Part shown: piece by piece, positions 10,728 through 46,119 of the stretch
Layout of the letters: each line of letters opens with the position of its first letter
Position numbering within the stretch: position 1 is the first letter of the stretch
Assembly (NCBI GenBank): GCA_020637445.1
Contig: JACJVZ010000001.1
Coordinates: 85,108-149,107, forward strand
Reading direction: 5' to 3'
DNA length: 64,000 nt
Source: Calditrichota bacterium
Lineage (GTDB): Bacteria > Electryoneota > RPQS01
Notes under the pieces: generated by a model
Database searches by the model: none
Told to the model about the DNA's origin: nothing
What the model saw: the letters and a program-made list of their open reading frames with translations, nothing else
Program-made: the position numbers and the translations under genes

Positions 10728-10760
10728 GAAGACCTGAATCTACAGGTCTTCTTTTATTTT
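10728..10760 (+). terminator. Rho-independent terminator
   Basis: GAAGACCTG-aatcta-CAGGTCTTC followed by TTTTATTTTT. Confidence 0.6.
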
Positions 10761-11010: not shown

Positions 11011-11027
11011 TAAATTATGGCACCCTG

Positions 11028-12176: not shown

Positions 12177-12395
12177 CATGGAGCCCGTGAACGTCACATG
12201 TTCTTCAGGTGCGCCAAATTCATTGTTCTGGCGTGGTCAATCACAGCTGATAATCTGCGTCTTAGATCATTGGTGGGAAGCAGGACGCTGGTGGGAGACG
12301 GAAGTAGCACGGGAGTTCTTTCTTGTACTGACGAATCAACGACGCATACTTTTGTGCCGCAACCCTAACTCCGGAGATTGGCTTGCCAAGTCAGC

Positions 12396-15479: not shown

Positions 15480-15838
15480 GCCTCGACCGATTTGGTCAAG
15501 GCTTTTTAGGGTAAGTAGATTGGATGCATCTTAGGCACCCGATTCCAACGGCGAACCTACTGGATTCTTAACATCACCCCAATGCGACCAGTGGTCCAAC
15601 CACATACCAGTGAAGTTGGGAGCTTGTGGCACACGTTCATCATGAATTGGGTAGTCGACATCTGGTTTTATTGTCTTCCGGTTGTTTTCGATCGGTCGAT
15701 GAGGCAGAAAGAAATGCTGAATCGAATCTGACTTTCGCCTGAATCCGAGTTGTTTTAGTGTTTTTGTTGTGGGGTTTAGTGTGGATGTTGTCATGAATAT
15801 TCTTTCGTGATTTCTTGCGCAGTCTTGCCATTCAGAAA

Positions 15839-16108
15839 TGTAACCTGGATTTTGAATTTGTAACCAGCATGTAACCAACGTAAGGCGAGTATTTTCTAAC
15901 GTGTAACCATGTAACCAATTTTTGCGATACACACCCCACTATAAATGATTTTTTGATCGTCGTATTCAGCATTGAATCTAGTGAATTGAATTTTCTATAA
16001 TGAGAGTATCGTTCTAAAAAGGTTACAAGGTTACATTACTATTTCTACTCCACTTACGTGGTTACAATCAGGTTACATGAAGGTTACATTTTAGGAAAAC
16101 AGGTTACA
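15839..16108. repeat. Iteron-type origin candidate: 5x TGTAACC (15839-15916), a ~100-bp AT-rich spacer, then 6x GGTTACA (16021-16108) in mirror-image spacing
   Basis: Left heptamer starts: 15839, 15859, 15870, 15902, 15910. Right heptamer starts: 16021, 16029, 16059, 16071, 16082, 16102. The spacings mirror each other (left 20/11/32/8, right 8/30/12/11/20) around an AT-rich centre at 15917-16020. The region lies just downstream of, and overlaps the 3' end of, the replicase gene. Confidence 0.6.
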
Positions 16109-24417: not shown

Positions 24418-25715
24418 TCGATTGTGAACACTGGGACGAGCGTCCAATTACCGATTTAGCTGACTTCATTGACGGATACGCGTTTGCGCCCGACGATTGG
24501 AGTAGGGAAGGTCTGCCTATCATTCGAATCGAACAACTTCGGAATTTTGATTCAGTTAGTGATTGGTATAGTGGAACATTGCCTATTGAAAATATTATCG
24601 AGAATGGCGATCTAATATTCTCCTGGAGTGCATCGCTCTTCTTAAAGATTTGGTCCCACGGAAAGGCAGCCCTTAATCAGCACCTTTTCAAAGTCGTGGA
24701 GCATGATGGTGTTGACCGACTGTATCTAAAGTACCTGATTGAATACAATTTGCCGCGACTTAAGAATGCGTCTCACGGGTCGACGATGCAACATGTCACT
24801 AGACGTGAGTTGCGGCAGTTTTTGGTTAGATATCCAATCAAAGAGTCAGAACAAGCCCTGATTGCTGCTTTGCTTCAAACCGTGGACAAAGCCATTGAGC
24901 AAACAGAAGCGATGATTGCCAAGCAAGAGCGAATCAAGACTGGATTGATGCAGGATCTGCTTACGAAAGGGATTGATAAGCACGGCAACATCCGCTCTGA
25001 AGCCACACACAAATTCAAGGACTCGCCGCTGGGCAGGATTCCGGAAGAATGGGAATGCGATGCCTTGGGTGCATATCTGAATTCTGGCGGAGGGTTTATT
25101 CAAACGGGACCATTCGGGAGCCAACTTCATTCCTATGAATACGTCGATGAAGGGATTCCGGTTGTAATGCCTCAAGATATGCTTGATGACGAGATCAGCC
25201 TGAAGTCTATTGCCCTCATAACTCCTAAGCGCGCGAAGGATCTTTCGCGACACAAAGTGGAAGTGAACGATGTTCTCTTTGCCCGCCGCGGCGAGCTAGA
25301 TAGATGTGCAGCAATCTATGAGAGAGAACAAGGCTGGATTTGTGGAACGGGATGCTTACTAATGCGGATGGCACGATCAAATCTTAATCCAACATGGGTG
25401 ACAATGACCTACAAGCATCACCGAATACAGAGACAAGTGCTTGCGCACGCTGTCGGATCTACAATGATAAACCTTAATCAAGGACTGCTTAAGGATCTCT
25501 CATTTCCGCGTCCAAGCCTTGCGGAACAACATGAGATCTGCCTAAGATTATCGACCTTTGACGCCTCGCTGTCTGGCCAGCATGTACTGCTCGGCAAATT
25601 GCAGTTACTTAAGTTAGGCCTCATGCAAGACCTTCTATCCGGCAAGGTCCCCGTTACGCATCTTCTAAAGCAAAGTGGTTCCGCAGATGTGGAGAATGTC
25701 GCATGCCCCGCGTAG
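24414..25715 (+). CDS. hsdS: Type I restriction-modification specificity subunit HsdS (two target-recognition domains)
   Basis: 433 aa with two repeated TRD halves separated by a conserved helical spacer ([11 protein letters not shown]... and [11 protein letters not shown]...). Lies between hsdM and hsdR with overlapping stops and starts. Confidence 0.8.
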
Positions 25716-28700
25716 ACCGCACGCCAGCCTATATTAAGATTGACGAGAAGAACCACGTCGAAGTGCCGTTTCTTGCACAGCTTGAGGGATTGGGATGGGA
25801 CGTAATACGGCTGGAGATGAAAGATCAAAAGCCCAAAGATACTTGGCGGACCGATTTTTCCGAAGTAATTCTCGAACCTGTACTAAGGCAATCGCTGAAG
25901 AAGATCAATCCGTGGATCGAAGACGATCAGGTTGACGACGTAATTCGCAGGCTGACCAGTTACACAGCGTCTGGGTTGCTAGACAATAACCGGCGGATTC
26001 TGGCGATGCTGTTGGAGAATATGTCGGTATCTGAAAATCGCAAGACCGGCGATCCTGATCCCACGGTCCGAATCATAGATTTTGAAAACAGGGACAACAA
26101 CTCCTTCATCGCTGTTTCGCAGCCCAAGTTTCGAGTGCCTGCCACGGAGCACCACATCTTTCCCGACATCGTGCTCTTCGTGAACGGTCTGCCCGTCGTG
26201 CTGGTCGAATGCAAATCCCCAAAGGTCAAGGAACCGATCCCCGAAGCGATAGACCAGATGATGCGCTACAGCCAACAACGAGGCGAAGAGAAAGAAGGCG
26301 TTCCGCAGCTCTTCTATTTCAATCAGTTCATTGTTGCCACCTGCCGCCAGCAAGCGAAGTTTGGAACCATCACAACGCACACAGAGCGCCACTTCTACCG
26401 CTGGACCGATCCCTACCCCAAAAGCCTGAACGATTTGGAGCACGGCGCCAGCAGCCCCAATGACCAGCAACGCTTGGTGGCCGGTATGTTGGACAAGGAT
26501 AACCTGCTTAGCCTGATACGGACGTTTACGCTGTTCAAGACCAACGACAAAGGCAAGTTGATCAAAGTCGTCGGCCGCTACCAGCAATTTCGTGCGGTCA
26601 AGAAAGCCGTCGGCCGTTTGCTGACGGGCACAAACCGGCAGGAACGCAGTGGTATTATTTGGCATACCCAAGGATCTGGCAAGTCCCTGACAATGATGTT
26701 CATGGTACGCGAAATGTACCGCCATCCTGAGCTTTCTAAATGGAAAGTTGTCTTTGTCACGGACCGTACGCAGCTGGAACAACAGTTACGCGAGACAAGT
26801 CAGAGTATCGGCTTCACGGTCAAGCCTGCGGACTCGATAGCGAAATTGAAGGAGTTGCTGCCGACTGATTCTTCTGACCTGATCATGGCGATGATCCACA
26901 AGTTTCAGGAAAGGGAGTTACAAGAGGCCTTCCCTGAGCTGAACACGAGTCAGAATGTGCTTGTAATGACAGACGAAGCACACCGGTCGCAATACAAGCT
27001 GCTTGGGGCGAACTTGGATCGAGCACTCCCCAATGCGACGAAAATCGGATATACAGGCACGCCTATCGATAGGACCGAACAGGTGTTTGGCGACTACATT
27101 GACAAGTATACGATGCGGGAAGCCATCGAAGACGGTGTAACACTTTCCATCGTGTACGAAGGCAGAACGCACAATGCAGAAGTTGACGACGCCGAAGCGA
27201 TGGATACGGACTTTCAAGATGTTTTCAGCGATTGCAAGATCGACGAGCGCCTAAAAATTCTGGGCTATTCATCACGCCTGGCGTATCTTGAAGCTGAACC
27301 AACCATCACAGCCAAAGCGAAGGACATGGTGAAGCACTATGTTTCGCAGGTCTTTCCCAATGGATTTAAGGCACAGGTGGTTGCTGTTTCCCAAGAGGCC
27401 GCCGTTCGCTACAAGAAAGCTCTTGAATCGGCCTTGCAAGGCATGATAGAAGGACTGGAAAAGCATAACCCGCGCAAAATCAACATTGAGCGACTAAAGC
27501 AGCTCAAAGTTGAAGTTGTGATATCGGGAGGCCACAACGATCTGCCGCACATTAAGGAACATGCAGACTCATCTAAACACAAGACACATATTAAGAGCTT
27601 TACACTGCCCTTCGACACGGAAGACGAAGGCGTCAAAGGCGACGTTGGAATCCTGGTTGTAATGAATATGCTGATTACCGGATTCGATGCACCCATCGAG
27701 CAGGTAATGTACCTCGACCGTGTCATCACGGACCATAATTTGCTTCAGGCTATCGCCCGAGTTAATCGCGTAGGTGAAGAAGGCAAAGACAAAGGGTTTG
27801 TTGTAGATTACGTAGGTGTCGGCCATCATTTGAAGGACGCGATAAAGAGCTACGACGAGCGTGAACAGGCAGAGGTCGTGAAATGCTTGTCTACGCCAGC
27901 AGAAGAACTAAATGAACTCGTCGCGGCAAGCAATAGCCTGAAAGAAATGCTTGCAAAGCACGGATTGACGAACCTGTCTGATCACGATGCCTTCTTCGAC
28001 CTCTTTTACGACGAAGACGTTAGATATGATTATCTTGAGGCCTTCAAGAAGCTTACAAAGAGTTTGAACTTAGTGTTTCCGCGCAAAGAAGCGCTCGAAT
28101 ATCTTAACGAGTATCAGTCATTATCCGAGATTAATGCGCTTGCCGCTTCTCACCTGAACGACGACCGTCTTAGTTTGAAGGGCGTCCCCGCGAAGTTAAG
28201 AAGAATTACGGATGCGCATCTTGTTTCAAAAGGCATCGAACAGAAGGTCGCGCCTATTTCCATTTTTGATGACTCGTTTATCGAAAACGTCAAGAAGCGC
28301 AGTCGGGCAAAGACAAAAGCCGCTGAAGTGGAACATGCGATTCGTCACCACATTGAAGTGAACATAAATGACGACCCAGAGCTATATGCTTCTTTCGCAG
28401 AGGCGCTAGAGCGCATTTTCCAAGACTTCAAGGACAACTGGCAGGCAATTTTCGAGGAGCTAGAGAAGCTAAGAGCGAGAATAAGAAATCTGCCGCAGCC
28501 ACCTGCCGGGCTGACCCGAAAGAAACACATGCCATTCTTCCGAATTCTTGCAAGAGAAATCTACGGAAAACGTTTTGGCGATGACACATTTACAGATGAA
28601 GAAGAAGACAATTTAGTCGAGCTCACACACGAAGTTGTTGAGACAATCGTCCGTGAAACCAAACTAATCGGCTTTTGGGATAGCACTCCTTCACAGAACA

Positions 28701-28840
28701 GGCTTGAAGCCGACCTTCAGGGGATACTGTTGTCTGAGCGGTTTAGCAAGTTGCCCAACGTTTTGGATAACTGGAAACCGATTAGATCGCGGCTCATGGA
28801 GAAAGCCTATACTTCTCGCGACATTTTGTCGTACGCCTAG
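25703..28840 (+). CDS. hsdR: Type I restriction enzyme endonuclease/helicase subunit HsdR
   Basis: N-terminal PD-(D/E)xK region (VLVECKSPKV). SF2 helicase motifs (GSGKSLTMMF; DEAH box MTDEAHRSQY). 1045 aa. Confidence 0.85.
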   Translation: MPRVDRTPAYIKIDEKNHVEVPFLAQLEGLGWDVIRLEMKDQKPKDTWRTDFSEVILEPVLRQSLKKINPWIEDDQVDDVIRRLTSYTASGLLDNNRRILAMLLENMSVSENRKTGDPDPTVRIIDFENRDNNSFIAVSQPKFRVPATEHHIFPDIVLFVNGLPVVLVECKSPKVKEPIPEAIDQMMRYSQQRGEEKEGVPQLFYFNQFIVATCRQQAKFGTITTHTERHFYRWTDPYPKSLNDLEHGASSPNDQQRLVAGMLDKDNLLSLIRTFTLFKTNDKGKLIKVVGRYQQFRAVKKAVGRLLTGTNRQERSGIIWHTQGSGKSLTMMFMVREMYRHPELSKWKVVFVTDRTQLEQQLRETSQSIGFTVKPADSIAKLKELLPTDSSDLIMAMIHKFQERELQEAFPELNTSQNVLVMTDEAHRSQYKLLGANLDRALPNATKIGYTGTPIDRTEQVFGDYIDKYTMREAIEDGVTLSIVYEGRTHNAEVDDAEAMDTDFQDVFSDCKIDERLKILGYSSRLAYLEAEPTITAKAKDMVKHYVSQVFPNGFKAQVVAVSQEAAVRYKKALESALQGMIEGLEKHNPRKINIERLKQLKVEVVISGGHNDLPHIKEHADSSKHKTHIKSFTLPFDTEDEGVKGDVGILVVMNMLITGFDAPIEQVMYLDRVITDHNLLQAIARVNRVGEEGKDKGFVVDYVGVGHHLKDAIKSYDEREQAEVVKCLSTPAEELNELVAASNSLKEMLAKHGLTNLSDHDAFFDLFYDEDVRYDYLEAFKKLTKSLNLVFPRKEALEYLNEYQSLSEINALAASHLNDDRLSLKGVPAKLRRITDAHLVSKGIEQKVAPISIFDDSFIENVKKRSRAKTKAAEVEHAIRHHIEVNINDDPELYASFAEALERIFQDFKDNWQAIFEELEKLRARIRNLPQPPAGLTRKKHMPFFRILAREIYGKRFGDDTFTDEEEDNLVELTHEVVETIVRETKLIGFWDSTPSQNRLEADLQGILLSERFSKLPNVLDNWKPIRSRLMEKAYTSRDILSYA

Positions 28841-29635: not shown

Positions 29636-30919
29636 GTGAAGCTGCGAAATGTTTCGTTTACAGTTTGGCTCCAGAGCCACAGCAAGAAGGACCCCGAGGA
29701 GAAATGGCTTCGCGAACTTTACCCGTGGCCAGTACTTGCGCAAGTAGACTACGATGAAAGGCAAATTGGCAAGCCCCAAGTAATTGAATTTGATGGTGCC
29801 GGGTACTTGATTACTCTAGAGTCCATGAAATGGCAACCGACGCATGGCACCTATAGGTATCGTTTACACGTTGAGTCAGACGGGCTTGGGTGGCACGCAA
29901 GATCGTATTCAGATAGGTTTGATTTGTGCGCAACTCCGGACGGCTTGTTTGTGACACTTTTTCACACAAGCAGACAAGAGCCACTCGAAAGAATTGCGAG
30001 GGCGTTCTTTGCGCGCCGATGGGAAGATATTAATCCAAGGTTGTTCGAGAATCTTGCTGTATCTCGATTTCTAGCTGCAAGCATCGTTGCACAAATAGTA
30101 GAAGACCTTTCTTGGGAGATTCCGCTTACGCACTACCCAAACGCACGTCTTTCAGGAACTGTGGCGCCAATGTTCGCAAACGGCAACAACTTATGGCTGG
30201 GGTATCGCTTCTTGTCGGAAACTGCTTACGCATGGGCGCGAACGGCCGCCTTGATGTCCCAGCAAGTAGTTGCTTTGTACTTCGCTGATACGAAGTACCA
30301 GTACAAAGTCGATTTGCCACAAAATGCCAGAGTCTTGTCAGTCGTTGAAATGGATAAGAACGAGCTCGGAGGTCGCTACCACGACTACATACGCATTCTC
30401 CTGCGAGGATTAGAGCTACCTAATGGCGTTTCAAATATCGACCTACTCAGTTCCATAGTTGAGGGACGGATTGAGTCTCCTCCGATCTCAATCTCGGAGG
30501 CAGATGTAAACGAGTCACTAGCGGCCCTAAAGTGTCCTTGTTTCTCAAAGTCTGAGCTCCGCTATCAACTTGCCGCTGCAGTTGTTCTGAACGCATGGAT
30601 CGAAGCAGAACGACTCCTAGGCTTTGTTAAGCGGAAGAAATTCTATGCCTTTAAGCAAAAGGTTGGTACGCTAGCGCGGTGGGCCAGTGAGTTCAGTCCT
30701 CCAGGTGTACAAGTGTGGACAGAGGTCATTGACAAGGATCATGGAGCAGTTGTCTACATTCGAATCGACAACGTCGACTTTAGCTTTCATGCAATTCCAA
30801 GTCAAGACAAGTGGAGCAACTCAAAAACGCCTACACCTGCTTGGAGCGGTGTTCGCTTGAAGCCCATTGCTCCTATCGTCTTAAAGTGGGCCAGATCAAT
30901 GCGTGATTCAAACGTCTAA
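29636..30919 (+). CDS. Hypothetical protein (427 aa; GTG start)
   Basis: Long ORF with no motif I can assign. Lies between the peptidase gene and repeat copy 1. Confidence 0.45.
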   Translation: MKLRNVSFTVWLQSHSKKDPEEKWLRELYPWPVLAQVDYDERQIGKPQVIEFDGAGYLITLESMKWQPTHGTYRYRLHVESDGLGWHARSYSDRFDLCATPDGLFVTLFHTSRQEPLERIARAFFARRWEDINPRLFENLAVSRFLAASIVAQIVEDLSWEIPLTHYPNARLSGTVAPMFANGNNLWLGYRFLSETAYAWARTAALMSQQVVALYFADTKYQYKVDLPQNARVLSVVEMDKNELGGRYHDYIRILLRGLELPNGVSNIDLLSSIVEGRIESPPISISEADVNESLAALKCPCFSKSELRYQLAAAVVLNAWIEAERLLGFVKRKKFYAFKQKVGTLARWASEFSPPGVQVWTEVIDKDHGAVVYIRIDNVDFSFHAIPSQDKWSNSKTPTPAWSGVRLKPIAPIVLKWARSMRDSNV

Positions 30920-31035
30920 TGTCTTGGCTAAGAAGAACTTTGCTTCTGATCGAGAAGTGGCGGGTGCTTTATACCACGGTTAGACCACATAACACACTGG
31001 GCTATCCGCCACCCGCGCCGGAAGCAGAAAACAAT

Positions 31036-31113
31036 AGCTTCCGTCTCCGCCAAGCTGCGACGGAAGTAACCAAGTGTAATCCTACAACTGGTACAGAGAA
31101 TGGGGGCAGACCA
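31036..31113 (+). repeat. Direct repeat copy 1 (hairpin CTTCCGTC/GACGGAAG followed by the core TAATCCTACAACTGGTACAGA...GGGCAGACCA)
   Basis: Homologous over ~85 bp to 37527-37599. The hairpin has compensatory substitutions relative to copy 2. Contains a 21/21-nt identical core. Confidence 0.7.
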
Positions 31114-31196
31114 TTGTGACCTTCGTTTGGACCAAAAACTCACTGAAGATACAAAGCGAGAGTAAGGCATAGCCTACAATCAATAGAGGGCATTCT

Positions 31197-32804
31197 ATGA
31201 AAGCGATTATTACGTGGATCGTCATTACGGTGACTTGTCTAATCGTAATGCCGACGCTGGGTTGGAATCCGTCCGACTTCTTTCACCAGTACTGGCCTAA
31301 ACCTGTTGCATCTTTTCTGTCATTCTTGGCAAGCGCAAAATTCCTATTGCCAGTTGCAATACCTGTTTGCATTTCTGGCTTGTTCGGAAAGAGTCGTCCG
31401 ACGACAAAAGAATTTTACAGACATCGTCCAGTCTGGGTGTTCGTTTCGTTTGCTACCGCTGCTGTTATCTGGTTGATAATGCTAGTCGGCTGGAAGACAG
31501 AGATTACAATGCCCAACTCTACCACGCTTGGCGCAGATGGTATTAGGTACGATTGGCTGTCGCGACTAGGTGTGATAGTTTTGCTTGCTGGCGTGGCAGC
31601 ATTTTTCATCAAGAGGCCATTGACATCCAGTTTTTTCAAAGATTTGCGCCAACAAGCTTCAGGAGACAATGGTTCGATCTCAAGGACAATCACCGGCGGT
31701 GTGCACTGGTGGAGCTTGATCTCTCTGCTGGGTACCGCTACGCTGGCGTTCATAAGTTTCGAGTGGTTGTCGCTCGACTCGTCGCTTGCATGGAAGTTGA
31801 TTGTCATTGTTCCGGCATTTCTGTGCTTTTGGCTGGTGGGAGGTGTGATGGTGTTGCATGTCAATGAGATAGGCATACTAACTTCGTACAATAACCCTAA
31901 CCCTCATCCTTGGGTCCTACGCCGTTCAGTTGACCATCAAAAGGGTTACATTGAGCAGGACGCCTATCATACGGATAAAACAAAGGATTCTGACGGTACA
32001 GTTCTGAGGACAGGATTGAACATTTATTGCTTACCGTTCTGGCTTCCTTTTATCGGAATCACTCTCTTAACGAGAGAAATCGAACAACGCTTCGGTACAA
32101 CTCCCCTATTCCCGACGAAGCCAGTTGCGAGTGACGGACAACCAGATGACCCCAATCGGAGAAGACTCGTTGGCCCGAAAGTGCAGATAAAATTTCGCAT
32201 GCGCGTTTGCTGGAACGAGGCACCTTTTACTTTTTTACACATATCCTTTTCTGAACAGAACAATATTCGCCAGAATGCAGTCAAAGCGCTTTCCGCTTTG
32301 ATGGTTAATAAATTCAGCGAGATGAGTGTTGAAGAGGTATACACTTTGCTCCATTACACTCCCTATCGTAACACGGGTAGTGGTGATGCTAATCGTATCA
32401 CATCCGATTTAGCTGAAACGCCATGGGATAGGTTTCAAAGTGAAGCAGCGCGCCTTCTCTTTCAGGAGTTCGGTGCCAGAGTAATAACGATTCAAATTGA
32501 AGACATTAATCTAGATCCCGATCTTGAAAGAGCTATTCAGGCACAGGCTGCGGCCACTACAGAAGTGGAACGCCAGACGATCCTTGGGCAAGCCGAGGGG
32601 CGTAGAGAAGCCAGCCTGATAAAGGACTTTGCTCGACAAGTTTTCGGAATTCCCGCCAATCAGGAAGTTTCTGAAGCAAAAATGTTGGAAGCATTAGCGG
32701 AGTACAACAAACTAAACAAATTCAGAAACTCCAACATAGTGATTGACGGGAGTGACGAAAGGCGGCAAATTATTCTGGGCATTGATTATAGCCGAACACG
32801 TTAG
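31197..32804 (+). CDS. Multi-pass membrane protein with a C-terminal SPFH (band-7/stomatin/flotillin-like) domain
   Basis: About 300 aa of hydrophobic helices. C-terminal ...VITIQIEDINLDPDLERAIQAQAAATTEVERQTILGQAEGRREAS matches the SPFH signature region. Confidence 0.55.
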   Translation: MKAIITWIVITVTCLIVMPTLGWNPSDFFHQYWPKPVASFLSFLASAKFLLPVAIPVCISGLFGKSRPTTKEFYRHRPVWVFVSFATAAVIWLIMLVGWKTEITMPNSTTLGADGIRYDWLSRLGVIVLLAGVAAFFIKRPLTSSFFKDLRQQASGDNGSISRTITGGVHWWSLISLLGTATLAFISFEWLSLDSSLAWKLIVIVPAFLCFWLVGGVMVLHVNEIGILTSYNNPNPHPWVLRRSVDHQKGYIEQDAYHTDKTKDSDGTVLRTGLNIYCLPFWLPFIGITLLTREIEQRFGTTPLFPTKPVASDGQPDDPNRRRLVGPKVQIKFRMRVCWNEAPFTFLHISFSEQNNIRQNAVKALSALMVNKFSEMSVEEVYTLLHYTPYRNTGSGDANRITSDLAETPWDRFQSEAARLLFQEFGARVITIQIEDINLDPDLERAIQAQAAATTEVERQTILGQAEGRREASLIKDFARQVFGIPANQEVSEAKMLEALAEYNKLNKFRNSNIVIDGSDERRQIILGIDYSRTR

Positions 32805-32905: not shown

Positions 32906-33901
32906 TTGGCACAAAAGAATAGGGACAACATGCCCGACCTAAACCACCTTCAACGCGCACTGCGCATTCTTCAGCGGTTGATGACTCACGATCGAGTCAC
33001 AGTTGCGGAACTGCATGAACTGCTAGACAAACAGGTCGATAAGCGTTCGATTCAACGGATGTTGAATTCCATAGAAGGCGCGAATATCCCGTTGCGATTT
33101 GAAACCGGAGCACATGGTGTTCGGTACTACAGATTGCAGCGGGAATTTGATTTTGTGCCGATGATGCTGGAGCCGGATGACTTGTTGGCGGGCATTCTTT
33201 TGGGACAGTTCAAAGAACTGTTTCAAGGCACAAAGATTGGCGACAATATCAAACGTGTCTTTGAACGCATGGAGCAGCTCGTGCCGCCCGATGGAGTCGA
33301 GATCGCTTCAGCATTCTGGGATGTCAATGATGCTTTCTCGTATCACGAAGCTGGTCGAGTCGACATCAAGCCATTCAGCCACGTCCTGATGGACCTGTTC
33401 AAAGCACTTCTGGCGCGCAAAGTGTGTTGGGTGAAGTACAAAGGGAAGTCGTATCAGATTCATCCATACAGTCTGATTCTGCATACCGGATCGCTCTACG
33501 CAGTCGTCTTTCAACCTTATCACAAGTCGTACATCTATCTGTCGTTGCCACGCATCGAGGAGATTACGCCGACTGACGAGATCTTTGAACGTGATCCCAA
33601 GTTTAGCCTAAGAGAGTTTATGAAGGACAAGTTCGGCATCTGGTCGGACAAGCCTGCGACAGTGAAAATCAAATTCGCCAAGCTTGTTCGTCCGTCAATA
33701 GAAGGACGCGTCTGGCATCACAGTCAGTCGATAAGAGAACTTAAGTCCGGTGACATCGTACTCACAATGAAAGTAGGTATTACGGAAGAACTGATTGCGT
33801 GGATTCTGCGATGGGGGAAGTATGGAATCGTGCAGTCCCCTAAGAAGCTGCAAGACAGAATCAAGCGGACCCTAAGAGAAACTCTGAAGAGTTACAGATA
33901 G
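32906..33901 (+). CDS. HTH plus WYL-domain transcriptional regulator (YafY/BrxR/CapW-like)
   Basis: N-terminal wHTH (LQRALRILQRLMTHDRVTVAELHELLDKQVDKRSIQRML). C-terminal WYL-type region (YSLILHTGSLYAVVFQPYHKSYIYLSLPRIEEI). Confidence 0.65.
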   Translation: MAQKNRDNMPDLNHLQRALRILQRLMTHDRVTVAELHELLDKQVDKRSIQRMLNSIEGANIPLRFETGAHGVRYYRLQREFDFVPMMLEPDDLLAGILLGQFKELFQGTKIGDNIKRVFERMEQLVPPDGVEIASAFWDVNDAFSYHEAGRVDIKPFSHVLMDLFKALLARKVCWVKYKGKSYQIHPYSLILHTGSLYAVVFQPYHKSYIYLSLPRIEEITPTDEIFERDPKFSLREFMKDKFGIWSDKPATVKIKFAKLVRPSIEGRVWHHSQSIRELKSGDIVLTMKVGITEELIAWILRWGKYGIVQSPKKLQDRIKRTLRETLKSYR

Positions 33902-33907
33902 CACGTC

Positions 33908-34288
33908 ATGATTTGTCGCTCTGGCTGGTATTTTTCAGCCATGAAGACAACATCTCCCACCCCAAAGCCCGGCCGCAAGATCGTTATCGATCTTAAGTCT
34001 GTTCCTGTTAACTACAAAGCGGCAACGAGGTTATTCTGTCAGCGATATCTAACCGCAGCACTACGAATGTACTCATGGAATGTGACCAAATGTGCAAAAG
34101 CGCTTGGAATCAGCAGGAGGACATTGCAGCTCAGGATGAGGCAGTTTGGAATTCAGGAGGGCATGAACATCGAGTCCAATGCGCATTTCATCACTGCAAA
34201 AGAAACCTCAATGGCTATTGACTCCGATTCGGCATTAGAACCTACTTCCTTAGATGTCAGCAGCCGGAGTGAAAATGTCGTCCAATAA
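33908..34288 (+). CDS. Small Fis-type HTH DNA-binding protein
   Basis: C-terminal HTH_8-like motif WNVTKCAKALGISRRTLQLRMRQFGI. Confidence 0.45.
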   Translation: MICRSGWYFSAMKTTSPTPKPGRKIVIDLKSVPVNYKAATRLFCQRYLTAALRMYSWNVTKCAKALGISRRTLQLRMRQFGIQEGMNIESNAHFITAKETSMAIDSDSALEPTSLDVSSRSENVVQ

Positions 34289-35801
34289 CGGCTATCGATA
34301 TCTGTCCAAGTCTAGGCTAATGGCACTTCATCAGTGCCCATTGCGGCTTTGGAACGAGGTGCACCGACGCGATCTGATGCAGGCGCCGTCAGCAGAAGCC
34401 CAAGCTCGGTTTGACGCTGGAACGATGGTTGGTGAGCTTGCTCGCGATCTCTATCCCCAAGGTAGGTTGATAGCGGAGAAGTACTGGGAAATCGCAATGG
34501 CCAAGATTCACACAAACGAAGCACTGGCCGACAAGTCCATTCCGGCACTGTTTGAACCGGCGTTCGAGTATCGGCAGACCCGCGTACGCTGCGATATTCT
34601 CGTTCGTGGAAAAGGCGGCTGGCAGCTCTGGGAAGTCAAGAGCGTAGTCAATCCCAAAGAATACCACGTGCTTGACGTTGCAATTCAGGCGCATGTACTG
34701 AAGAAGTCGATGGAGGCGTCCGGGAGCGACTGTAATTTCGAGAATATTGGCGTAGTCCATCTAAACAATGAATATGTCTACGACGGCAAGAAGTATGATG
34801 CAAATAGTCTCTTCAGCCGATTTGAGTGCTTAGATGAAGCGTTGGACATTGAGATTCCAGTTGAAGACTTGATTTCTGAGGGTCTAGAAATCGCCACGTC
34901 GACAATACCGCCGCAGATTAAGCCTGGCGGTCAATGCACAGATCCTTACGACTGCCCATTCCTTGGCAGTGCCTGTGATGTGCCGGAACGGCATCCACTG
35001 ATGTTGGTGCCAGGCGTTGGTCCGGCCAAGCTTGAGAGTCTTATTGCACAGGGAATCAACACACTGGACGATCTTGCAGCCAGCAGCGTAGTCTTAAATG
35101 GCCCCCAGCAGCGCATGATGAAGGCCGAAGAGACTGGACAATGCGTGGTCGAACCGACATTGTCTGAATATCTGGCGGCAATAGGATATCCCAGATATCA
35201 TCTTGACTTCGAGACGTTCATGCCTGCGCTTCCTAGATACAAAGGTACGCGGCCATTTCAGGCGCTGCCGTTCCAGTACTCAGTTCATTTCGAAGAATCT
35301 GAACGACGACCTGCACAGCACTTTGGCTATCTGCATTCGGAAGATTCAGATCCAAGGCGGTTGCTCACCGAGCATATGCTTGATGTCCTTGAACAGCACC
35401 CAGACGCGCCAGTCCTAATGTACACAGCGTACGAGAAACGGGTTCTCAATGCGCTTGCAGATGAACTTCCTGAATACGCAGACCGATTGAATACCGTCGC
35501 TGATCGACTCGTTGATTTGTGTGCCATCGTCAAGGACAATATCTACCATCCGGACTTCAACGGCAGCTTTTCTATCAAAAGTGTATTGCCTGCCTTGGTC
35601 CCGGAACTCGGATACGATGATCTTGAAATTGCGGATGGTACAGCGGCTTCGCTGAAGTACATGGAGATGATCGAGCTAGCCAAGTCTGACAAAACTTCGG
35701 CGAAGGTGATATTGAACCAGCTTTGGGAGTATTGTAAACGCGATACGGAGGCGATGATTGCCGTCGTGTCACGGCTTAACATATTGTCAGCGGGTATTTG
35801 A
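34275..35801 (+). CDS. Cas4/RecB-like PD-(D/E)xK nuclease with a 1+3 Cys Fe-S arrangement, a helix-hairpin-helix motif and a ~250-aa C-terminal domain of unknown function (DUF2779-like)
   Basis: Start chosen at the ATG with GGAG 6 nt upstream. N-terminal Cys (HQCPLRLW). D...E.K core (RCDILVRGKGGWQLWEVKSV). C-x5-C-x6-C (CTDPYDCPFLGSAC). HhH (LVPGVGPAKLESLIAQGI). Confidence 0.55.
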   Translation: MSSNNGYRYLSKSRLMALHQCPLRLWNEVHRRDLMQAPSAEAQARFDAGTMVGELARDLYPQGRLIAEKYWEIAMAKIHTNEALADKSIPALFEPAFEYRQTRVRCDILVRGKGGWQLWEVKSVVNPKEYHVLDVAIQAHVLKKSMEASGSDCNFENIGVVHLNNEYVYDGKKYDANSLFSRFECLDEALDIEIPVEDLISEGLEIATSTIPPQIKPGGQCTDPYDCPFLGSACDVPERHPLMLVPGVGPAKLESLIAQGINTLDDLAASSVVLNGPQQRMMKAEETGQCVVEPTLSEYLAAIGYPRYHLDFETFMPALPRYKGTRPFQALPFQYSVHFEESERRPAQHFGYLHSEDSDPRRLLTEHMLDVLEQHPDAPVLMYTAYEKRVLNALADELPEYADRLNTVADRLVDLCAIVKDNIYHPDFNGSFSIKSVLPALVPELGYDDLEIADGTAASLKYMEMIELAKSDKTSAKVILNQLWEYCKRDTEAMIAVVSRLNILSAGI

Positions 35802-35888
35802 TACTGGGCTGCCCTATTTCATACCAACATGAATCAATTGATTTGCGATCATACTAATATGTAGTAACGCGTAAGAACTGTAAGAACA

Positions 35889-36989
35889 ATGGCAATTAGA
35901 CGAAAGCAGCACATTCCCACTTTGCGTGAAATTGTCCGGCGGATTCCCAAAGAAAACGACCTTTTCTCCGAAGTGTTTTCACGTGAGTCAGTAATAAATG
36001 CGATCGACCGGCTTTTTGTCAAACGCAACATGTATGGATACAGCAGTTGGTTTGTGCTGGAATGTGCTGGAGAGTTATCCCGACAGTACAGCGACCTCGC
36101 AGCTGCCATGCTTGAACGTGCTGCAGACTACATTCTTGAACGCGATGGCCTACGAAGTGCAGATGAATGTCAGAATCTGGTGTCTGAAGCGGCGACACAT
36201 TGGCTTATGTCGGACAATATTGCTGAGTACAACGAAACGAACTTGCATCGTATTTCTATTAGCCTTAAGTCAACTAAACAACGTGAGCTTTTTGTTTCAG
36301 AGGAACATCTCGGTAGTCTAATTGTGCTGTACGATACAGCAGAAAGATACTTTGAATCAGGTAATTTGGAAAGGGCTCTTGAGACGTTTCAGCTATTTAT
36401 GAGAGAGATGGAAGTCGAAGAACAGTACGTGGCGGCCGGTGATGCAGCCTTAAGATGTATGTTGGTTTGTGCTGCATTGGAGAATTGGCCTAAGACCCAA
36501 GATTTCGCCTTGGAGTCGCTGGAACTGTATAAGCGATCAGAAGAGGATATGGATCTAGACGATATGCTTCTTTGCAATTACTACACGGGCAAAGCCATGT
36601 ACTTCATGGCGGCAGCCGCTAACGCTGGCAGTATTATAGATTGTCTTACTTTCTGCAAAGAGGATGATGAAGACAGAGAGATGCTCACAAGAAACGGAGT
36701 TGACTTCCGCGAGATGGATCAAATGCTAGCGAGATGCCATGCAATACGAGGCGAACTGTGCTTTCAGAAATGGGCCTATCAAAACAACTCGACGCTTCTC
36801 AGCGATGCTGAGGCTGATCTAATAAAGTCAGCAGAGATGCTTGAGGAAGAGCCGGAACGCCCGCGCAGAGTACTGGCACGAGTGTACGCCGCATTAAGCA
36901 CCGTCTATAGTGCAAAAGGTAGCATAGATGAAGCAGCAGAATATCGCGAAAAAGCTCTTAGATTCGGATTTGATTTATCCGAAGAATAA
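35889..36989 (+). CDS. Hypothetical all-helical (TPR-like?) protein, 366 aa
   Basis: Clean ORF. Amphipathic helical-repeat character. No catalytic motifs. Confidence 0.45.
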   Translation: MAIRRKQHIPTLREIVRRIPKENDLFSEVFSRESVINAIDRLFVKRNMYGYSSWFVLECAGELSRQYSDLAAAMLERAADYILERDGLRSADECQNLVSEAATHWLMSDNIAEYNETNLHRISISLKSTKQRELFVSEEHLGSLIVLYDTAERYFESGNLERALETFQLFMREMEVEEQYVAAGDAALRCMLVCAALENWPKTQDFALESLELYKRSEEDMDLDDMLLCNYYTGKAMYFMAAAANAGSIIDCLTFCKEDDEDREMLTRNGVDFREMDQMLARCHAIRGELCFQKWAYQNNSTLLSDAEADLIKSAEMLEEEPERPRRVLARVYAALSTVYSAKGSIDEAAEYREKALRFGFDLSEE

Positions 36990-37055
36990 TGTATTAGTAT
37001 AGTTTGCATTGGCTCCACGACGGGTGGCGCAATAAGAATGCGATATTGAAGAGTA

Positions 37056-37376
37056 ATGGGCAGCACCTACGAAGCAACGTGCCAGTCTTGTAACCATCAC
37101 TTTGATTTCCAAATTAGCGGAGGCATGACATTCCACTATCTGCACTGCGACAAATGTGGGGCTGGTAAGGCCATCGCCTTTGACGAACTTGAAGTTGTTG
37201 CTGGCGAACCACAATGTCCTGGGATAAATTTAGATCACAATTTGAAAGTTGAATGCGTTGCAGACAAGTGTCTTTGTGGGGGACACTTTCGATTCAATGC
37301 GCCAGTTCGATTCCCATGTTGTCATTCAACTGATGTCGATTGGGACGAAGACAATCCGCAAGAGAACTATGACTAG
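37056..37376 (+). CDS. Small zinc-ribbon protein (106 aa, multiple CxxC pairs)
   Basis: CQSCNHH...HCDKCG...CPG...CVADKCLCGGH...CCH is a Cys-rich metal-binding pattern. Confidence 0.45.
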   Translation: MGSTYEATCQSCNHHFDFQISGGMTFHYLHCDKCGAGKAIAFDELEVVAGEPQCPGINLDHNLKVECVADKCLCGGHFRFNAPVRFPCCHSTDVDWDEDNPQENYD

Positions 37377-37526
37377 AGGCATAATACCAGACAGTTCACA
37401 GATCGCGTTAACCACAATTCGGGCTTCGCAGTGAACCCTTTCGGGGGCCTCCGTACTCTTGCTACATTAATACCGAAAGGTTCGCTGGGTTACCAACTGT
37501 TCGCGCCGGGGACAGAAGAACAATTG

Positions 37527-37599
37527 CTGCCGTCTCACTCCGCCGGACGGCAGTAAGTATGCCTAATCCTACAACTGGTACAGAAATATGGGCAGACCA
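37527..37599 (+). repeat. Direct repeat copy 2 (hairpin CTGCCGTC/GACGGCAG followed by the core TAATCCTACAACTGGTACAGA...GGGCAGACCA)
   Basis: See copy 1. The first 21 nt of the core are identical. The hairpin keeps its pairing through TT->TG and AA->CA changes. Confidence 0.7.
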
Positions 37600-37730
37600 A
37601 CCTAGCCTACCCAACCTTGCCGGGTCCCTTTCCTGCTGATCAATATGTCGCGAATCAACTGCAAAAATGGCATTTTTGATAGGTCCTATTGCTGCAAAGC
37701 AACTTATCATTCAAGAAAGGGAGATTCTGA

Positions 37731-39743
37731 ATGTCTGACGAAACTACTGTCCGTAACGTAATCACTTCAATAGATCAGCATGTTCGCGATGTTTTTGGTA
37801 CTTCAAAGGCGTACCATATTGACATCTATCAACGGGAGTATCGGTGGGATAAGGACAATGTCGACACGTTGCTGAATGACCTTCAGATTCGTTTCGAACA
37901 ACATCAGCGCATTGAAACGGATCCCAAAGAAATCCATAAGGATGTTCTCAAGCGCTTCGAGCCATATTTTCTTAACACCTATTTGACCCACAGCACCAAT
38001 TCGACAACGGCTATCGTTGACGGTCAACAACGACTTTCGACCATCTTGCTAATGCTGATAAAGCTTCGGTCTATTCTCACTGAAATAGAAGGTGGTGAAA
38101 GCGCATCAACCAAGACATTTTCAAGCAAAAGCCTTGAACGTCTGATCTTCGAAACTGATGATTTCGGCGATGCGAATCGCTTCAAAGTCTATAATGAAAA
38201 TCGCGAGGCAGCCTTTCGCGGGCTGATAGACAATGCACCTGTCGATCCCTGCGACGAGACACAGAATCGGATTAATGAGAACTACACATTCATAAGTCAA
38301 CAGTTTGATGTATATTTCAAGATTGATGGCGATAGTAAGCAAGAGTGGGACTTATCAAAACTCACACACTACATTTTCTTTCTTCTTGACCGAGTATCAA
38401 TTGTAGAGATCAAGATAGAACGACAACAGCATGTTGCAACAATTTTTGAGGTTGTAAACGACCGTGGACTCGGACTCAAGCCTTATGAGATATTGAAGGG
38501 TAAGTTGTTAGGCAATCTTCCACCTGTTGAGAAGGAATATGCCAACAAGGTATGGACTGACCTTCAAAACAGATACTTCGCTTCCGATGTCAAAAATAGT
38601 ACTGATTCAAAGATCACACTTGATATGTTCTTTCAAACGTACTTTCGTGCCAAATTCGCTGAAAGCGAAGCGGATTACGTAAAGTACGAAAACGACTATC
38701 ACTACGAGATATATCGGAACAAAGACATTTCCAAGTACTTTGGCAACTTCTCCGACACACGCATTCTTTACGACAAGATTGTTAATGAGATAAAGTATTT
38801 CGCGGAACTGTACCTCAATTTACGCACCGGCTACTTTGATGAATTTCTGATTTACAACAAGCTTCTTGATCAGAATCAGCAGTACCTCTTGATAATGTCC
38901 TCGGTGATTCTGAATGATCCAAGTCGCGATACTAAAGTCACAGGGATTGCGCGGAAGTTTGACCAACTCCACTCTGTGCTCCGATTGCTTGATGTATATG
39001 ACAGTAACGTGTTTCAGCGTTATATCTACAAATTGAATAAACGAATTCGTAATGTATCTATGCTTGACGCAATCCACGTGTTCGATAGTACCTTGATAGA
39101 AGCACTCGTTGAAGGTGAAACTATCGCTCCAGAAGACGTAAATAATGTTGCCGATATTTTCCAGTATGAACGGTTCAGAGCTATGAGGAATCGCTGGACT
39201 AATTTCAGCAAGTATGTGCTGTTGCGCGTCGACCGCTACTTAGCGGAGCACTTAGACAAGCCTTCGTATACGACGAAAGGATCTTTGCAGGATTTGGAAG
39301 ACCACTTCAACAAGAGTACACGAAAGATTTATGGTATGCATCTTGAGCATATCTATGCGCGAAACGAGGAAAACTTCGACCAATTTAGGGATGTTAATGG
39401 CATATTTGACGAACAGCACTTTAATACAGTTCGGAATCAGCTGGGCTTGGTTCTACTTCTAAAAGACCGTCAGAACGAAAGCAGCAATAATGAATCATAT
39501 AGGATGAAAATGGAGCGATATCGTACGAGTAACTTTATCTGGAATGAACTTATGGTCGGCCATCTAGATATTGTGGACAAACGAAAGTTACCCGACAAAT
39601 TTGCATTTGAGAGGGTGGATCCTGATTCTAGCGGTGCCTTTCCAAGCGATAAGTGGGGGGCCCGACAGCAACTAATGTATAATGCTGTAAAAACCGTCTG
39701 GCTTGATGATGTTATGAATTGGGAGCAAACATTAAATGAATAA
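37731..39743 (+). CDS. GmrSD-like type IV (modification-dependent) restriction endonuclease: DUF262 N-terminal domain plus DUF1524 His-Me finger C-terminal domain
   Basis: DUF262 motifs (IDIYQREYRWDKDNV; IVDGQQRLSTILLML). C-terminal GMHLEHIYARNE fits the DUF1524 (D/E)H-I-x nuclease motif. 670 aa. Confidence 0.7.
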   Translation: MSDETTVRNVITSIDQHVRDVFGTSKAYHIDIYQREYRWDKDNVDTLLNDLQIRFEQHQRIETDPKEIHKDVLKRFEPYFLNTYLTHSTNSTTAIVDGQQRLSTILLMLIKLRSILTEIEGGESASTKTFSSKSLERLIFETDDFGDANRFKVYNENREAAFRGLIDNAPVDPCDETQNRINENYTFISQQFDVYFKIDGDSKQEWDLSKLTHYIFFLLDRVSIVEIKIERQQHVATIFEVVNDRGLGLKPYEILKGKLLGNLPPVEKEYANKVWTDLQNRYFASDVKNSTDSKITLDMFFQTYFRAKFAESEADYVKYENDYHYEIYRNKDISKYFGNFSDTRILYDKIVNEIKYFAELYLNLRTGYFDEFLIYNKLLDQNQQYLLIMSSVILNDPSRDTKVTGIARKFDQLHSVLRLLDVYDSNVFQRYIYKLNKRIRNVSMLDAIHVFDSTLIEALVEGETIAPEDVNNVADIFQYERFRAMRNRWTNFSKYVLLRVDRYLAEHLDKPSYTTKGSLQDLEDHFNKSTRKIYGMHLEHIYARNEENFDQFRDVNGIFDEQHFNTVRNQLGLVLLLKDRQNESSNNESYRMKMERYRTSNFIWNELMVGHLDIVDKRKLPDKFAFERVDPDSSGAFPSDKWGARQQLMYNAVKTVWLDDVMNWEQTLNE

Positions 39744-41241
39744 AGACTTAGGCGTCTTCCCTTTTGGAAAAGAAGTTGTAGAAGTTAGGCAAGCTGATGA
39801 TTCTCCGAAGAGCGTGTTTATACTAGGTGTTTATGCTAGTGCAGTACACGCTCGATGGATAGGAGCAAATGGAAGGGAATTGGTTAAGTCATTGTCCGTG
39901 TGCAGCGAGTCTGAGATATTCTGGGATGGGTCAAACCAAGACTTGATAATACAAAGAATTGTAGTTCCTAATGATGCTGGAAAGCTAAAGCCATCACATC
40001 TTAATGGCGAGTCAGGAAAGGCTCTCGACAAGCATTTCCTCGCACCACTTCATCTAAATCGGTCACAAGTATGGCTTTCCGACTTGTTACCTTTCTTCCA
40101 TGTGAGGCCTGGGAGTAAACAGGAAAAGCGGATCCACGATACATACAACAATCTTGCAGTTGAGAAAGGATGGCCAGTTGCGAATATCAGAAAACTATCT
40201 ACAAAGTTTGAAACAACTGTTGAACGGGTTTATGAGATAGTAGCTGAGCTTGTTTTGTCTGGTGCTGACATCTTGATTACTCTTGGTGATGATCCGCTGC
40301 GCCTATTTACTTCAAGATTTGATCAGTGGCACCGAGCGAGCCTAAGTGAATACGCTTCCTATGGCAACACATACAAAATCGAAATAGACGGTCGATCATT
40401 GCTGCACTTGCCGCTAGTGCATCCGCGACAGGCTGGAAGACTTGGGAATCACTCCTCCAAATGGAGCGATCTTCATGACCACTGGAAACACGGTGATCCC
40501 AGTTGTTTGATACGATGCCGATTATACGACAATGATTTGTCAAACGTCAACTTTGATAATATTCCAAATTATTGTGGTCGAAACCCTTATTCTGTTTTGC
40601 AATATCTAATCATGCGCTTCTGCACTTACATAGTTAAAAGAGACAAGGGACTAGCTCCTAATCCCTTCTACGGCTACTGCACACTTGCGCTATGTACGCC
40701 TAATCATATGGGGATTAGGCTAAGTGCCGGTGACTGGATTGCAGGATTTACCGACAGAGCGTCAGGTAACAAGCTCGTCTATTGCATGCGAGTTGATGAG
40801 GTGCTTGACTTGGATCACTATTACCATGACCAACGCTTCCAACGCAAGAAGCCCCAGCACAATGGAACTGCTCGGCAGCGAGTCGGTGATAACATGTATT
40901 GGAGAGATGAACGAGGTGTATGGAAACGAGACCCTGAAGCTAGTTTGCACTTCAAGAAGGAGCACTTCAATAGGGATACTCGGCACGCTTTAGTTTACAT
41001 TGGCAGACGATTCCACTATCTTGGTAGGGTAGCCTCTGTTGTTCCGCCGAAGTTCCATGTGCTACCGCCTGCCGGCCGAGGAGTAAGGACGAATCATGAA
41101 GACAATCTTGTTAATGACTTCCTGTCATGGGTGCAGGAATCATTCGAGGTCGGAATTACAGCAATGCCGAGTATGTTTAGTGGTACTTCGGGATGCAGTA
41201 CCGATACTGGTTCCAGTCGCAAAAGCGTCGTATGCGGCTAA
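39736..41241 (+). CDS. Hypothetical 501-aa protein translationally coupled to the GmrSD-like gene; its N-terminal half may have a UDG-like fold lacking canonical catalytic residues (tentative)
   Basis: The start ATGAATAA overlaps the upstream stop. Segments FILGVYASAVHAR, ADILITLGDD and LHLPLVHPRQAG occur in the order and spacing of UDG motifs (ILGQDPY..AHG / LG / HPS) but with the catalytic residues substituted. Cys-rich C-terminal half. Confidence 0.4.
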   Translation: MNKDLGVFPFGKEVVEVRQADDSPKSVFILGVYASAVHARWIGANGRELVKSLSVCSESEIFWDGSNQDLIIQRIVVPNDAGKLKPSHLNGESGKALDKHFLAPLHLNRSQVWLSDLLPFFHVRPGSKQEKRIHDTYNNLAVEKGWPVANIRKLSTKFETTVERVYEIVAELVLSGADILITLGDDPLRLFTSRFDQWHRASLSEYASYGNTYKIEIDGRSLLHLPLVHPRQAGRLGNHSSKWSDLHDHWKHGDPSCLIRCRLYDNDLSNVNFDNIPNYCGRNPYSVLQYLIMRFCTYIVKRDKGLAPNPFYGYCTLALCTPNHMGIRLSAGDWIAGFTDRASGNKLVYCMRVDEVLDLDHYYHDQRFQRKKPQHNGTARQRVGDNMYWRDERGVWKRDPEASLHFKKEHFNRDTRHALVYIGRRFHYLGRVASVVPPKFHVLPPAGRGVRTNHEDNLVNDFLSWVQESFEVGITAMPSMFSGTSGCSTDTGSSRKSVVCG

Positions 41242-44529: not shown

Positions 44530-44817
44530 GTGAAATCCGTGGGCGAAAAGCTGGACGAGATCCTCGAAATTCTTCGAGAGTATCGCGTTGAATCCGGTGA
44601 AGCGGTTTGGCTCACGCCGGAGGAAGCGGCCGATCGTCTGCGGATTTCGCGTTCGCGCATCTACCAGTACATTCACGAAGGGAGCATCCCATTCCACCGA
44701 TTGCCCGAGTCGAATTTGATTCGACTGAACACGCTCGAACTCGATGCGTGGGTACGGAGTGGGTCGCAACCGCCAAGACAAGTCTCGAAAGAAGCAATCA
44801 GGAGGATTCTAAAATAA
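44530..44817 (+). CDS. Excisionase-family HTH DNA-binding protein (Xis-like)
   Basis: LTPEEAADRLRISRSRIYQYIHEGSIPFHRL is a MerR-like excisionase HTH. Its stop TAA overlaps the integrase start (TAATG). Confidence 0.65.
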   Translation: MKSVGEKLDEILEILREYRVESGEAVWLTPEEAADRLRISRSRIYQYIHEGSIPFHRLPESNLIRLNTLELDAWVRSGSQPPRQVSKEAIRRILK

Positions 44818-46027: not shown

Positions 46028-46046
46028 TTAGCAGGGCTTTAACCAG

Positions 46047-46119
<73 letters not shown>

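Follow-up and report, generated by a model that had tools for sequence, protein, structure and literature searches.

Whether a run of five closely spaced genes inside a defence island forms a single immune system is the question raised by positions 32906-37376 of a 64,000-nucleotide (nt) stretch of contig JACJVZ010000001.1 (assembly GCA_020637445.1, positions 85,108 to 149,107 of the forward strand), from a metagenome-assembled genome (MAG) of a Calditrichota bacterium placed by GTDB in Electryoneota, RPQS01; this whole stretch is called the window below. A preliminary description had proposed here an undescribed defence module made of a WYL regulator, a Fis-type helix-turn-helix (HTH) protein, a nuclease, a helical protein and a zinc-ribbon protein. 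All five open reading frames (ORFs) are present and co-directional, and are designated A to E as follows (lengths in amino acids, aa; wHTH, winged HTH):

Gene A, 32906-33901, + strand: wHTH-WYL-WCX transcription regulator (Pfam: HTH at 13-84, WYL at 160-221 with E 6.6e-7, WCX at 251-327 with E 7.7e-13)
Gene B, 33908-34288, + strand: small Fis-type HTH protein of 126 aa (Pfam HTH_8, E 3.7e-10)
Gene C, 34275-35801, + strand: DUF2779 two-nuclease protein, 508 aa from M8 (longest ORF 34254-35801)
Gene D, 35889-36989, + strand: 366-aa all-helical TPR solenoid protein (TPR_12, E 5e-8)
Gene E, 37056-37376, + strand: 106-aa Cys-rich double zinc ribbon (precomputed Pfam match, PF26783, DUF8255)

Our best explanation is that the region is a mosaic with an A-B-C core operon, in which a regulator of the type that senses single-stranded DNA (ssDNA) would control a nuclease degrading DNA ends within a defence island, a reading whose chances we judge to be roughly even. 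Its structural and comparative parts stand on far surer ground than the defence role of the WYL-DUF2779 block, which we infer.

The two-nuclease protein

The product of gene C matches the DUF2779 profile (PF11074) at residues 315-440 with 122.3 bits against a cut-off of 23.3 (E 1.9e-35), its C-terminal ~200 aa corresponding to PF11074 DUF2779/RNase_H_2, and it is 100% identical to the NCBI entry 'MAG: DUF2779 domain-containing protein [Calditrichaeota bacterium]'. Alignment of the homologues supports the ATG at 34275 as its start, which yields the overlap of exactly 14 nt with gene B that had been described before. In an alignment of 38 homologues, the PD-(D/E)xK residues D107 and K122 are invariant and E120 nearly so, and conservation extends to the 1+3 cysteines (C21 and C221, C227, C234) and to the DEDDy residues D311, E313, D414, Y486 and D490. 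The AlphaFold model built on this alignment reached a predicted local distance difference test score (pLDDT) of 94.6; its N-terminal half matches Cas4, Dna2 and MGME1, and its C-terminal half the PolB exonuclease, MrfB, ERI1 and ExoI. The two-nuclease architecture of PF11074 is thus found here with its catalytic residues intact, and both the alignment and the model indicate that C carries two intact nuclease active sites, of expectedly opposite polarity, and a helix-hairpin-helix (HhH) DNA-binding element.

Most of what had been read in this protein was therefore borne out, namely the RecB/Cas4-style nuclease core with its 1+3 cysteines, in conserved residues and in fold, and the HhH motif, albeit through a weak match (HHH_5, 2.8e-4). 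The C-terminal domain of ~250 aa was mistakenly called uncharacterised, since it is a DEDDy exonuclease already assigned to DUF2779 (PMC3985635, PMC13621843): a 2014 survey of RNase H-like proteins lists DUF2779 as family F.17 with a PD-(D/E)xK partner (PMC3985635), and a 2026 analysis of JCVI-syn3.0 found the same two-nuclease composition in the quasi-essential protein MMSYN1_0389 (PMC13621843). C is a full-length member of this family, Cas4-like in its N-terminal half and DEDDy in its C-terminal one. It differs from the mycoplasma protein, which has two of the Fe-S cysteines, in keeping all four, and from solitary core-gene members in being part of a mobile island, where it stands under a WYL regulator.

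C shares its fold, its D-E-K active site and its 1+3 cysteine cluster with Cas4, AddB, Dna2, Exo5 and MGME1, from which it departs in its cysteine spacing (C-x5-C-x6-C), in its fusion to a DEDDy exonuclease and HhH element and in having no helicase partner in the window. Searched by sequence against the PDB, C returned a weak HhH match to Pol beta only, no solved structure being detectable, and among the PADLOC-DB models it gave weak Cas4 matches only (E 0.0016-0.03). No Cas domains were found in the tested ORFs across 14-47694 and no repeat array in the window with Tandem Repeats Finder (TRF); unlike Cas4, C has neither cas1, cas2 nor an array nearby, which rules it out as a CRISPR-associated Cas4. 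It was also rejected as a member of the TM0106 family of RecB-like nucleases (TIGR03491), because its 53 bits fall below the cut-off of 97.45. That family has a sister architecture, Cas4-like plus RNase_H_2, and one of its members lies divergent from a second WYL gene on the Sphingobium yanoikuyae plasmid p-A-Sy (locus L184 of those fetched for comparison, 8450-10662), 1 kb from a WYL-DUF2779 pair.

The regulators

The regulator reported at the head of the co-directional block was confirmed by Pfam, which found its HTH, WYL and WCX domains, and by the PADLOC WYL models, which match it at 6e-25. The true start of gene A is likelier to be the ATG at 32930, giving 323 aa, because homology to the relatives begins there and the homologues are 323 aa long. 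Its supposed likeness to BrxR and CapW holds for the architecture, since in domain order and in size (~300 aa) protein A fits the wHTH-WYL-WCX class of BrxR, CapW and DriD; it does not hold for the sequence, the closest solved relatives being the DriD chains 7U02, 7TZV and 8TP8 (E ~4e-6), with no similarity to the solved BrxR or CapW structures detectable at E<0.01. WYL regulators bind ssDNA (PMC9186387, PMC11662680, PMC11804915), and those of the BrxR type often accompany type IV restriction enzymes (PMC9122601).

Islands headed by BrxR or CapW, such as the BrxR-BREX-BrxU island of pEFER (PMC9122601, PMC8565348, PMC11662680), are the nearest known counterpart of the arrangement: there too, a regulator of wHTH-WYL-WCX architecture opens a co-directional block at its 5' end, and the block holds a type IV enzyme of the GmrSD family and mosaic cargo. 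In the window, however, the constant partner of the regulator is a DUF2779 nuclease rather than BREX or CBASS, and a Fis-type HTH protein is added after the regulator. In the DriD, PafBC and SiwR regulons (PMC9186387, PMC11804915, PMC10693628), a WYL regulator likewise stands beside DNA-processing genes and ssDNA is the likely signal, whereas in the window the regulator belongs to an island bounded by an integrase and holding restriction systems.

The Fis-type gene B starts 6 nt past A and overlaps C by its last 14 nt, so tight a packing of A, B and C being operon-like. Homologues of B were found only in L001 (72%), L005 (84%) and L102 (44%), each directly 3' of the WYL gene, and B, confined as it is to four close loci, is a lineage-specific co-regulator. 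Its matches in PADLOC-DB v2.0.0 are marginal, the best (8.9e-5) being to the C-terminal HTH of RtcR_PspF2.

The closest relatives and the five-gene model

In the four closest loci, L001-L004, whose nuclease is 86% identical to C, the order WYL (96%), Fis (72%), C, GmrSD (97%) and Nmad2 (90%) is kept, and D and E are absent; in L001 the GmrSD gene directly follows C. At the DNA level, positions 35757-37563 of the window correspond to ~90 bp in the closest relatives, so D-E appears as an indel of 1.8 kb. On neither side of the shared block do the flanks of the window agree with those of L001-L004, indicating that the block has moved or that its surroundings were replaced, and it sits at differing chromosomal sites in related genomes. 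The next relatives, L005 and L006 (C 83%), carry WYL-Fis, then six genes including PAD_porph and an AAA+ ATPase, then C; where the window has D, E, GmrSD and Nmad2, they have a 192-aa gene and a PDDEXK_4 gene, D and E being thus both missing from all of L001-L006.

The shared end of homology at 35756 is merely the start of the variable C-terminal tail of C. Repeats, inverted repeats and att-like sites flanking the D-E insertion gave chance-level matches only.

Protein D, described as all-helical, proved to be a TPR solenoid by Pfam, by an AlphaFold2 model (pLDDT 86) and by a fold search, in which the predicted structure resembles generic TPR scaffolds only (LGN, KLC). A word-based search of 5.8e9 proteins returned D alone, and a full HMMER scan of 1.84e9 cluster representatives added five full-length homologues and its own truncated copy. 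In the two retrievable homologous loci, L099 (3753-4772) and L100 (8001-9188), the gene follows mfd and one or two paralogous proteins of ~600 aa, a context that looks chromosomal, and it has no zinc-ribbon, WYL or DUF2779 neighbour. The ~600-aa paralogues have no Pfam match, and the family of D ends in a conserved GFDLSEE tail. One further relative, of 25% identity, lies in L102, after WYL-Fis-REC and before a superfamily 1 (SF1) helicase. D is cargo absent from the closest relatives and no conserved partner of C.

Protein E is the Cys-rich zinc ribbon that had been announced, now placed in Pfam DUF8255. The word-based search again returned the query alone, and the sole homologue found, in L101 (51% identity), lies immediately 5' of Nmad2-Nmad3 and 2.8 kb downstream of C. 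There, at 13243-16058, a DHH-like 360-aa protein, the E-type zinc ribbon, Nmad2 and Nmad3 are encoded in a run, suggesting a place for DUF8255 zinc ribbons among the nucleotide-modification-associated genes. Since E precedes Nmad2-Nmad3 in L101 and GmrSD-Nmad2 in the window, it tracks Nmad2 and not the nuclease, and a link to the GmrSD-Nmad2 pair is likelier than one to C. D and E were also considered as a two-gene unit of their own and this was dismissed, because the D homologue is followed by a GNAT acetyltransferase in L100 and by a short ORF fragment that is not a zinc ribbon in L099.

The proposal that WYL, Fis-HTH, nuclease, TPR protein and zinc ribbon make up one obligate, undescribed defence system draws on their common direction, on gaps of 6, -14, 87 and 66 nt, on the lack of any strong terminator-like site between the genes on the + strand and on the distant D-like gene of L102 and the E homologue of L101. 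The nearest relatives, however, lack D and E and yet keep A-B-C-GmrSD-Nmad2 intact, the two genes occur together in this strain only, 0 of the 163 other DUF2779 loci surveyed carry both, and their homologues stand in the mfd-linked chromosomal context (D) or against Nmad2-Nmad3 (E). The five genes thus fail as one module, and we hold the five-gene system to be highly improbable. That no named defence system would be recognised was borne out by the profiles searched: among the component hidden Markov models (HMMs) of PADLOC-DB v2.0.0, D and E have no match, A matches the WYL models and C is hit only weakly, by Cas4.

Recurrence of WYL regulators with DUF2779 nucleases

In the mosaic reading the weight falls instead on A and C, whose pairing the preliminary description had proposed to follow across genomes and which does recur. 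The subfamily of C (identity of at least 44%) comprises 13 distinct loci, with an orthologous WYL gene in 8, an IetA-like AAA+ ATPase in 5, Fis in 4 and Nmad2 in 3. The family survey covered 163 distinct DUF2779 loci from genome, metagenome and plasmid collections, with ORFs of the fetched loci called by a simple longest-ORF rule; 26 have a WYL gene in their flanks, 15 an AAA+ ATPase, 11 both and 8 GmrSD, counts that are lower bounds because many metagenome contigs are short. WYL and ATPase co-occur above expectation over the 163 loci (Fisher p 2e-7, kinship of loci ignored). The WYL orthologues near DUF2779 in L001, L005, L095, L098, L101, L102 and L105 are 45-96% identical, and the identity matrices of WYL and C are correlated, with a Mantel r of 0.88 reached by 0 of 2000 permutations. 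WYL and DUF2779 genes, in short, recur together and diverge in parallel amid fast-changing cargo of the defence type.

The WYL gene lies upstream of C on the same strand in 14 of 22 loci, divergent upstream in 4 and downstream in 4. When both are on the same strand, 0-7 unrelated genes stand between them or just after, and those between or beside them include GmrSD, a McrBC-like pair, IetA-like AAA+ ATPases and other PD-(D/E)xK proteins. L095 thus reads WYL-[252 aa, AAA, GmrSD]-C-PDDEXK_13 with a serine recombinase further on, L098 WYL-[seven genes including an M48 peptidase, DUF3825, AAA and GmrSD]-C, and L101 WYL-[five genes, AAA]-C, followed at a distance by the E-type zinc ribbon, Nmad2 and Nmad3 and later by an integrase. 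In L102 the order is C-214-320-WYL-Fis-REC-TPR-helicase, in L105 the WYL gene is divergent from C, and L097 has NTP_transf-McrB-like-McrC-like-C, with a 4-nt overlap between the McrBC-like pair and C. Between the GmrSD genes of the window, of L095 and of L098 no similarity could be detected, implying that the type IV slot was refilled independently. In L105, a 1708-aa ORF with no Pfam match (11634-16760, - strand) lies immediately downstream of DUF2779 and convergent to it.

Plasmids of isolates offer related arrangements: ATP-binding protein-DUF2779-WYL in Rhodoferax and Diaphorobacter, an ATPase divergent from WYL-DUF2779 in Sphingobium, helicase-ATPase-DUF2779-PLD in Planktothrix and NERD-AAA-metallophosphoesterase-x-DUF2779 in Selenomonas.

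A triad of WYL, AAA+ ATPase (~600-750 aa) and DUF2779 occurs in 11 of the 163 other loci and not in the window. The ATPases beside WYL and DUF2779 have a double AAA domain in L038, L011, L025, L183 and L185 and a single one in L005, L095, L098, L101 and L105. All those inspected (L005, L095, L098, L038, L011, L025, L183) show hydrophobic-Gly-Phe at the C-terminus or a few residues before it, in the variants MGF, IGF, VGF and LGF, and their PADLOC matches are to IetA and TRIP13 only, on the ATPase core.

The same layouts could mean that WYL-Fis and DUF2779 belong to the backbone of a mobile element, serving its excision, replication or transfer, with the defence genes as hotspot cargo. Conserved WYL and C genes in fixed orientation do bracket variable cargo, the island ends in an integrase and tRNA-Lys, L095 has its serine recombinase, homologues of the integrase and of unk253 are common to the window and L101, and copies occur on plasmids. 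Nevertheless, the block of L001 runs into housekeeping genes with no integrase within 10 kb, the order is not constant (C precedes WYL in L102 and on the Rhodoferax and Diaphorobacter plasmids), most members of the family lie on chromosomes away from any mobility genes, and phages hardly carry it, 50,697 records yielding 2 partial matches. We regard a backbone function as improbable.

DNA repair and the DUF2779 family at large

A role in repair, in which a DriD/PafBC-like WYL activator would induce a DUF2779 end-processing nuclease upon genotoxic stress, the location in an island being incidental, has to be weighed against the mosaic reading in the light of the whole family. DUF2779 is a large bacterial family, matched by more than 1,900 database clusters at E<=0.001 among 8,000 candidates scored, and by more than 500 sequences in each contig collection scanned; among plasmids it occurs in 32 of 72,556.

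Several facts count against a defence operon, and some of them favour repair. In ~35 Nitrospirales genomes DUF2779 lies in just two conserved housekeeping neighbourhoods (neighbours named from reading of their sequences rather than from database matches), HemN-DUF4112-DUF2779-AroQ-EF-P-AccB-AccC (L041, L060, L072-L075, L078, L084 and others) and, in a second Nitrospira group, beside a MATE transporter, so that it is a syntenic core gene there and family membership alone is no sign of defence. In 42 other genomes the two neighbours on either side fall into 168 Pfam families, each in at most 3 loci, among them ribosomal protein L21 and sugar epimerases; WYL, at 3 loci, shares first place. The DUF2779 protein is quasi-essential in JCVI-syn3.0 (PMC13621843), and a transposon mutant in Mycoplasma bovis grows poorly and is listed beside growth-deficient DnaB, HolA and RecD mutants (PMC7373297), which suggests that the family may be a repair or replication nuclease. 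The family has been called uncharacterised (PMC13621843). The nearest solved relatives of A belong to a DNA-damage activator, DriD, and not to BrxR or CapW; a search for a shared operator motif upstream of 7 WYL orthologues gave nothing convincing; the AAA+ ATPase so frequent elsewhere yielded nothing in the window by tblastn with the L095, L098 and L005 ATPases; and host phylogeny by itself could explain why WYL and C diverge in parallel.

Repair is further favoured by the folds of C, which match the repair nucleases Dna2, MGME1, Exo5, AdnAB and MrfB, by an ImuB/DnaE2 cassette 20 kb upstream in the same window and by an SOS-response-associated peptidase near a Croceicoccus copy of DUF2779. 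It does not account well for a subfamily whose WYL-nuclease pair is found at varied chromosomal sites amid GmrSD, McrBC-like, PD-(D/E)xK and integrase or recombinase genes, for the rapid turnover of cargo between WYL and C that is typical of defence islands, or for plasmid copies amid PLD nucleases, helicases, NERD proteins and toxin-antitoxin systems. We place a repair module, the main rival of the mosaic reading, on the unlikely side. Overall, DUF2779 looks like a nucleic-acid housekeeping family, one branch of which was recruited to mobile, WYL-controlled contexts.

A possible mechanism

If the mosaic reading is correct, A would sense ssDNA made during infection or DNA damage and switch on the co-directional genes, by analogy with DriD, PafBC, CapW and BrxR (PMC9186387, PMC11804915, PMC11662680, PMC9122601). 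C would then resect or destroy DNA ends of both polarities with no need for RecBCD and might finish DNA cut by the neighbouring modification-dependent restriction enzymes, a plausible source of ends being the cleavage of modified phage DNA by GmrSD. D and E would have come in as cargo, at the gap that separates C from GmrSD.

A bolder generalisation, which we offer tentatively and consider doubtful, is that WYL and the two-headed DUF2779 nuclease, usually with an AAA+ ATPase, make up a widespread and uncatalogued mobile immune module, of which the window would hold an ATPase-less form with a Fis-HTH protein instead. The nuclease would act as a RecBCD-independent 'finisher', attacking foreign DNA in both strand polarities after modification-dependent cleavage of the GmrSD or McrBC type, and its ssDNA product would feed back on the WYL sensor.

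Island context and neighbouring genes

The setting between a type I restriction-modification (R-M) system and a type IV enzyme in a mobile region was as previously described, and its landmarks are:

21751-28840, + strand: type I R-M system, HsdM, HsdS and HsdR, in the upstream part of the island (Pfam N6_Mtase, Methylase_S, HSDR_N/SWI2_SNF2)
37731-39743, + strand: GmrSD (Pfam GmrSD_N and GmrSD_C; PADLOC Orf5 and HEC-06)
39736-41241, + strand: 501-aa protein with an Nmad2 domain as its C-terminal half (Pfam Nmad2, 1.4e-43)
44607-45842, + strand: tyrosine integrase of the island (Pfam Phage_integrase, 1.5e-33), abutting tRNA-Lys
46046-46119, - strand: tRNA-Lys(CTT) (ARAGORN and Rfam)

The tRNA-Lys(CTT) gene is the probable integration site of the island, and the GC content is 0.42-0.50 over 32-42 kb of the window against 0.51-0.57 to the right of it. 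A direct repeat of the tRNA-Lys 3' end, sought to fix the far end of the island, gave no match of at least 14 nt.

The GmrSD and Nmad2-protein genes overlap by 8 nt, suggesting translational coupling, and in L001 the latter is called in two pieces (259 and 211 aa). The tRNA was the sole match in an Rfam scan of the whole window, so the 354-nt spacer between E and GmrSD (37377-37730) is without a known RNA; its last ~166 nt are conserved in L001, and an 82-aa antisense ORF is called within it in metagenome contigs L087-L093.

Between the R-M genes and the WYL gene lie genes for a YgjP-like peptidase, a 427-aa protein and an SPFH protein. The last two (29636-32804), a protein with no Pfam or PADLOC match and a 535-aa multi-pass membrane SPFH/Band 7 protein, were both absent from the islands of the relatives.

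The mutagenesis cassette (9635-15479), ~20 kb upstream of the WYL-DUF2779 locus, consists of a 351-aa ORF in the ImuA position with no Pfam match, an ImuB of the IMS family and a DnaE2 with the domain set PHP-Pol III alpha-HHH-OB. The stretch from this cassette to the type I R-M system encodes, at 16091-18997 (- strand), a protein of 968 aa that has an AEP-TOTE primase-polymerase domain; its PADLOC matches are to the PrimPol model and to the N-terminal region of the DRT UG10 models, and it is a gene of the conflict-system type.

Implications

The two-nuclease fusion of DUF2779 is already in the literature. The literature searched links DUF2779 neither to WYL regulators nor to defence islands, so that the recurrent association with WYL regulators, with or without an AAA+ ATPase, appears to be undescribed. 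As two of the five genes at this locus are cargo, the case also cautions that tight spacing within defence islands does not define a system. For the DUF2779 family, the finding means that a part of it is mobile and tied to regulators of the ssDNA-sensing type, to AAA+ ATPases and to type IV restriction genes, which provides a testable handle on its function and makes the DUF2779 nuclease a candidate effector to be added to WYL-controlled islands.

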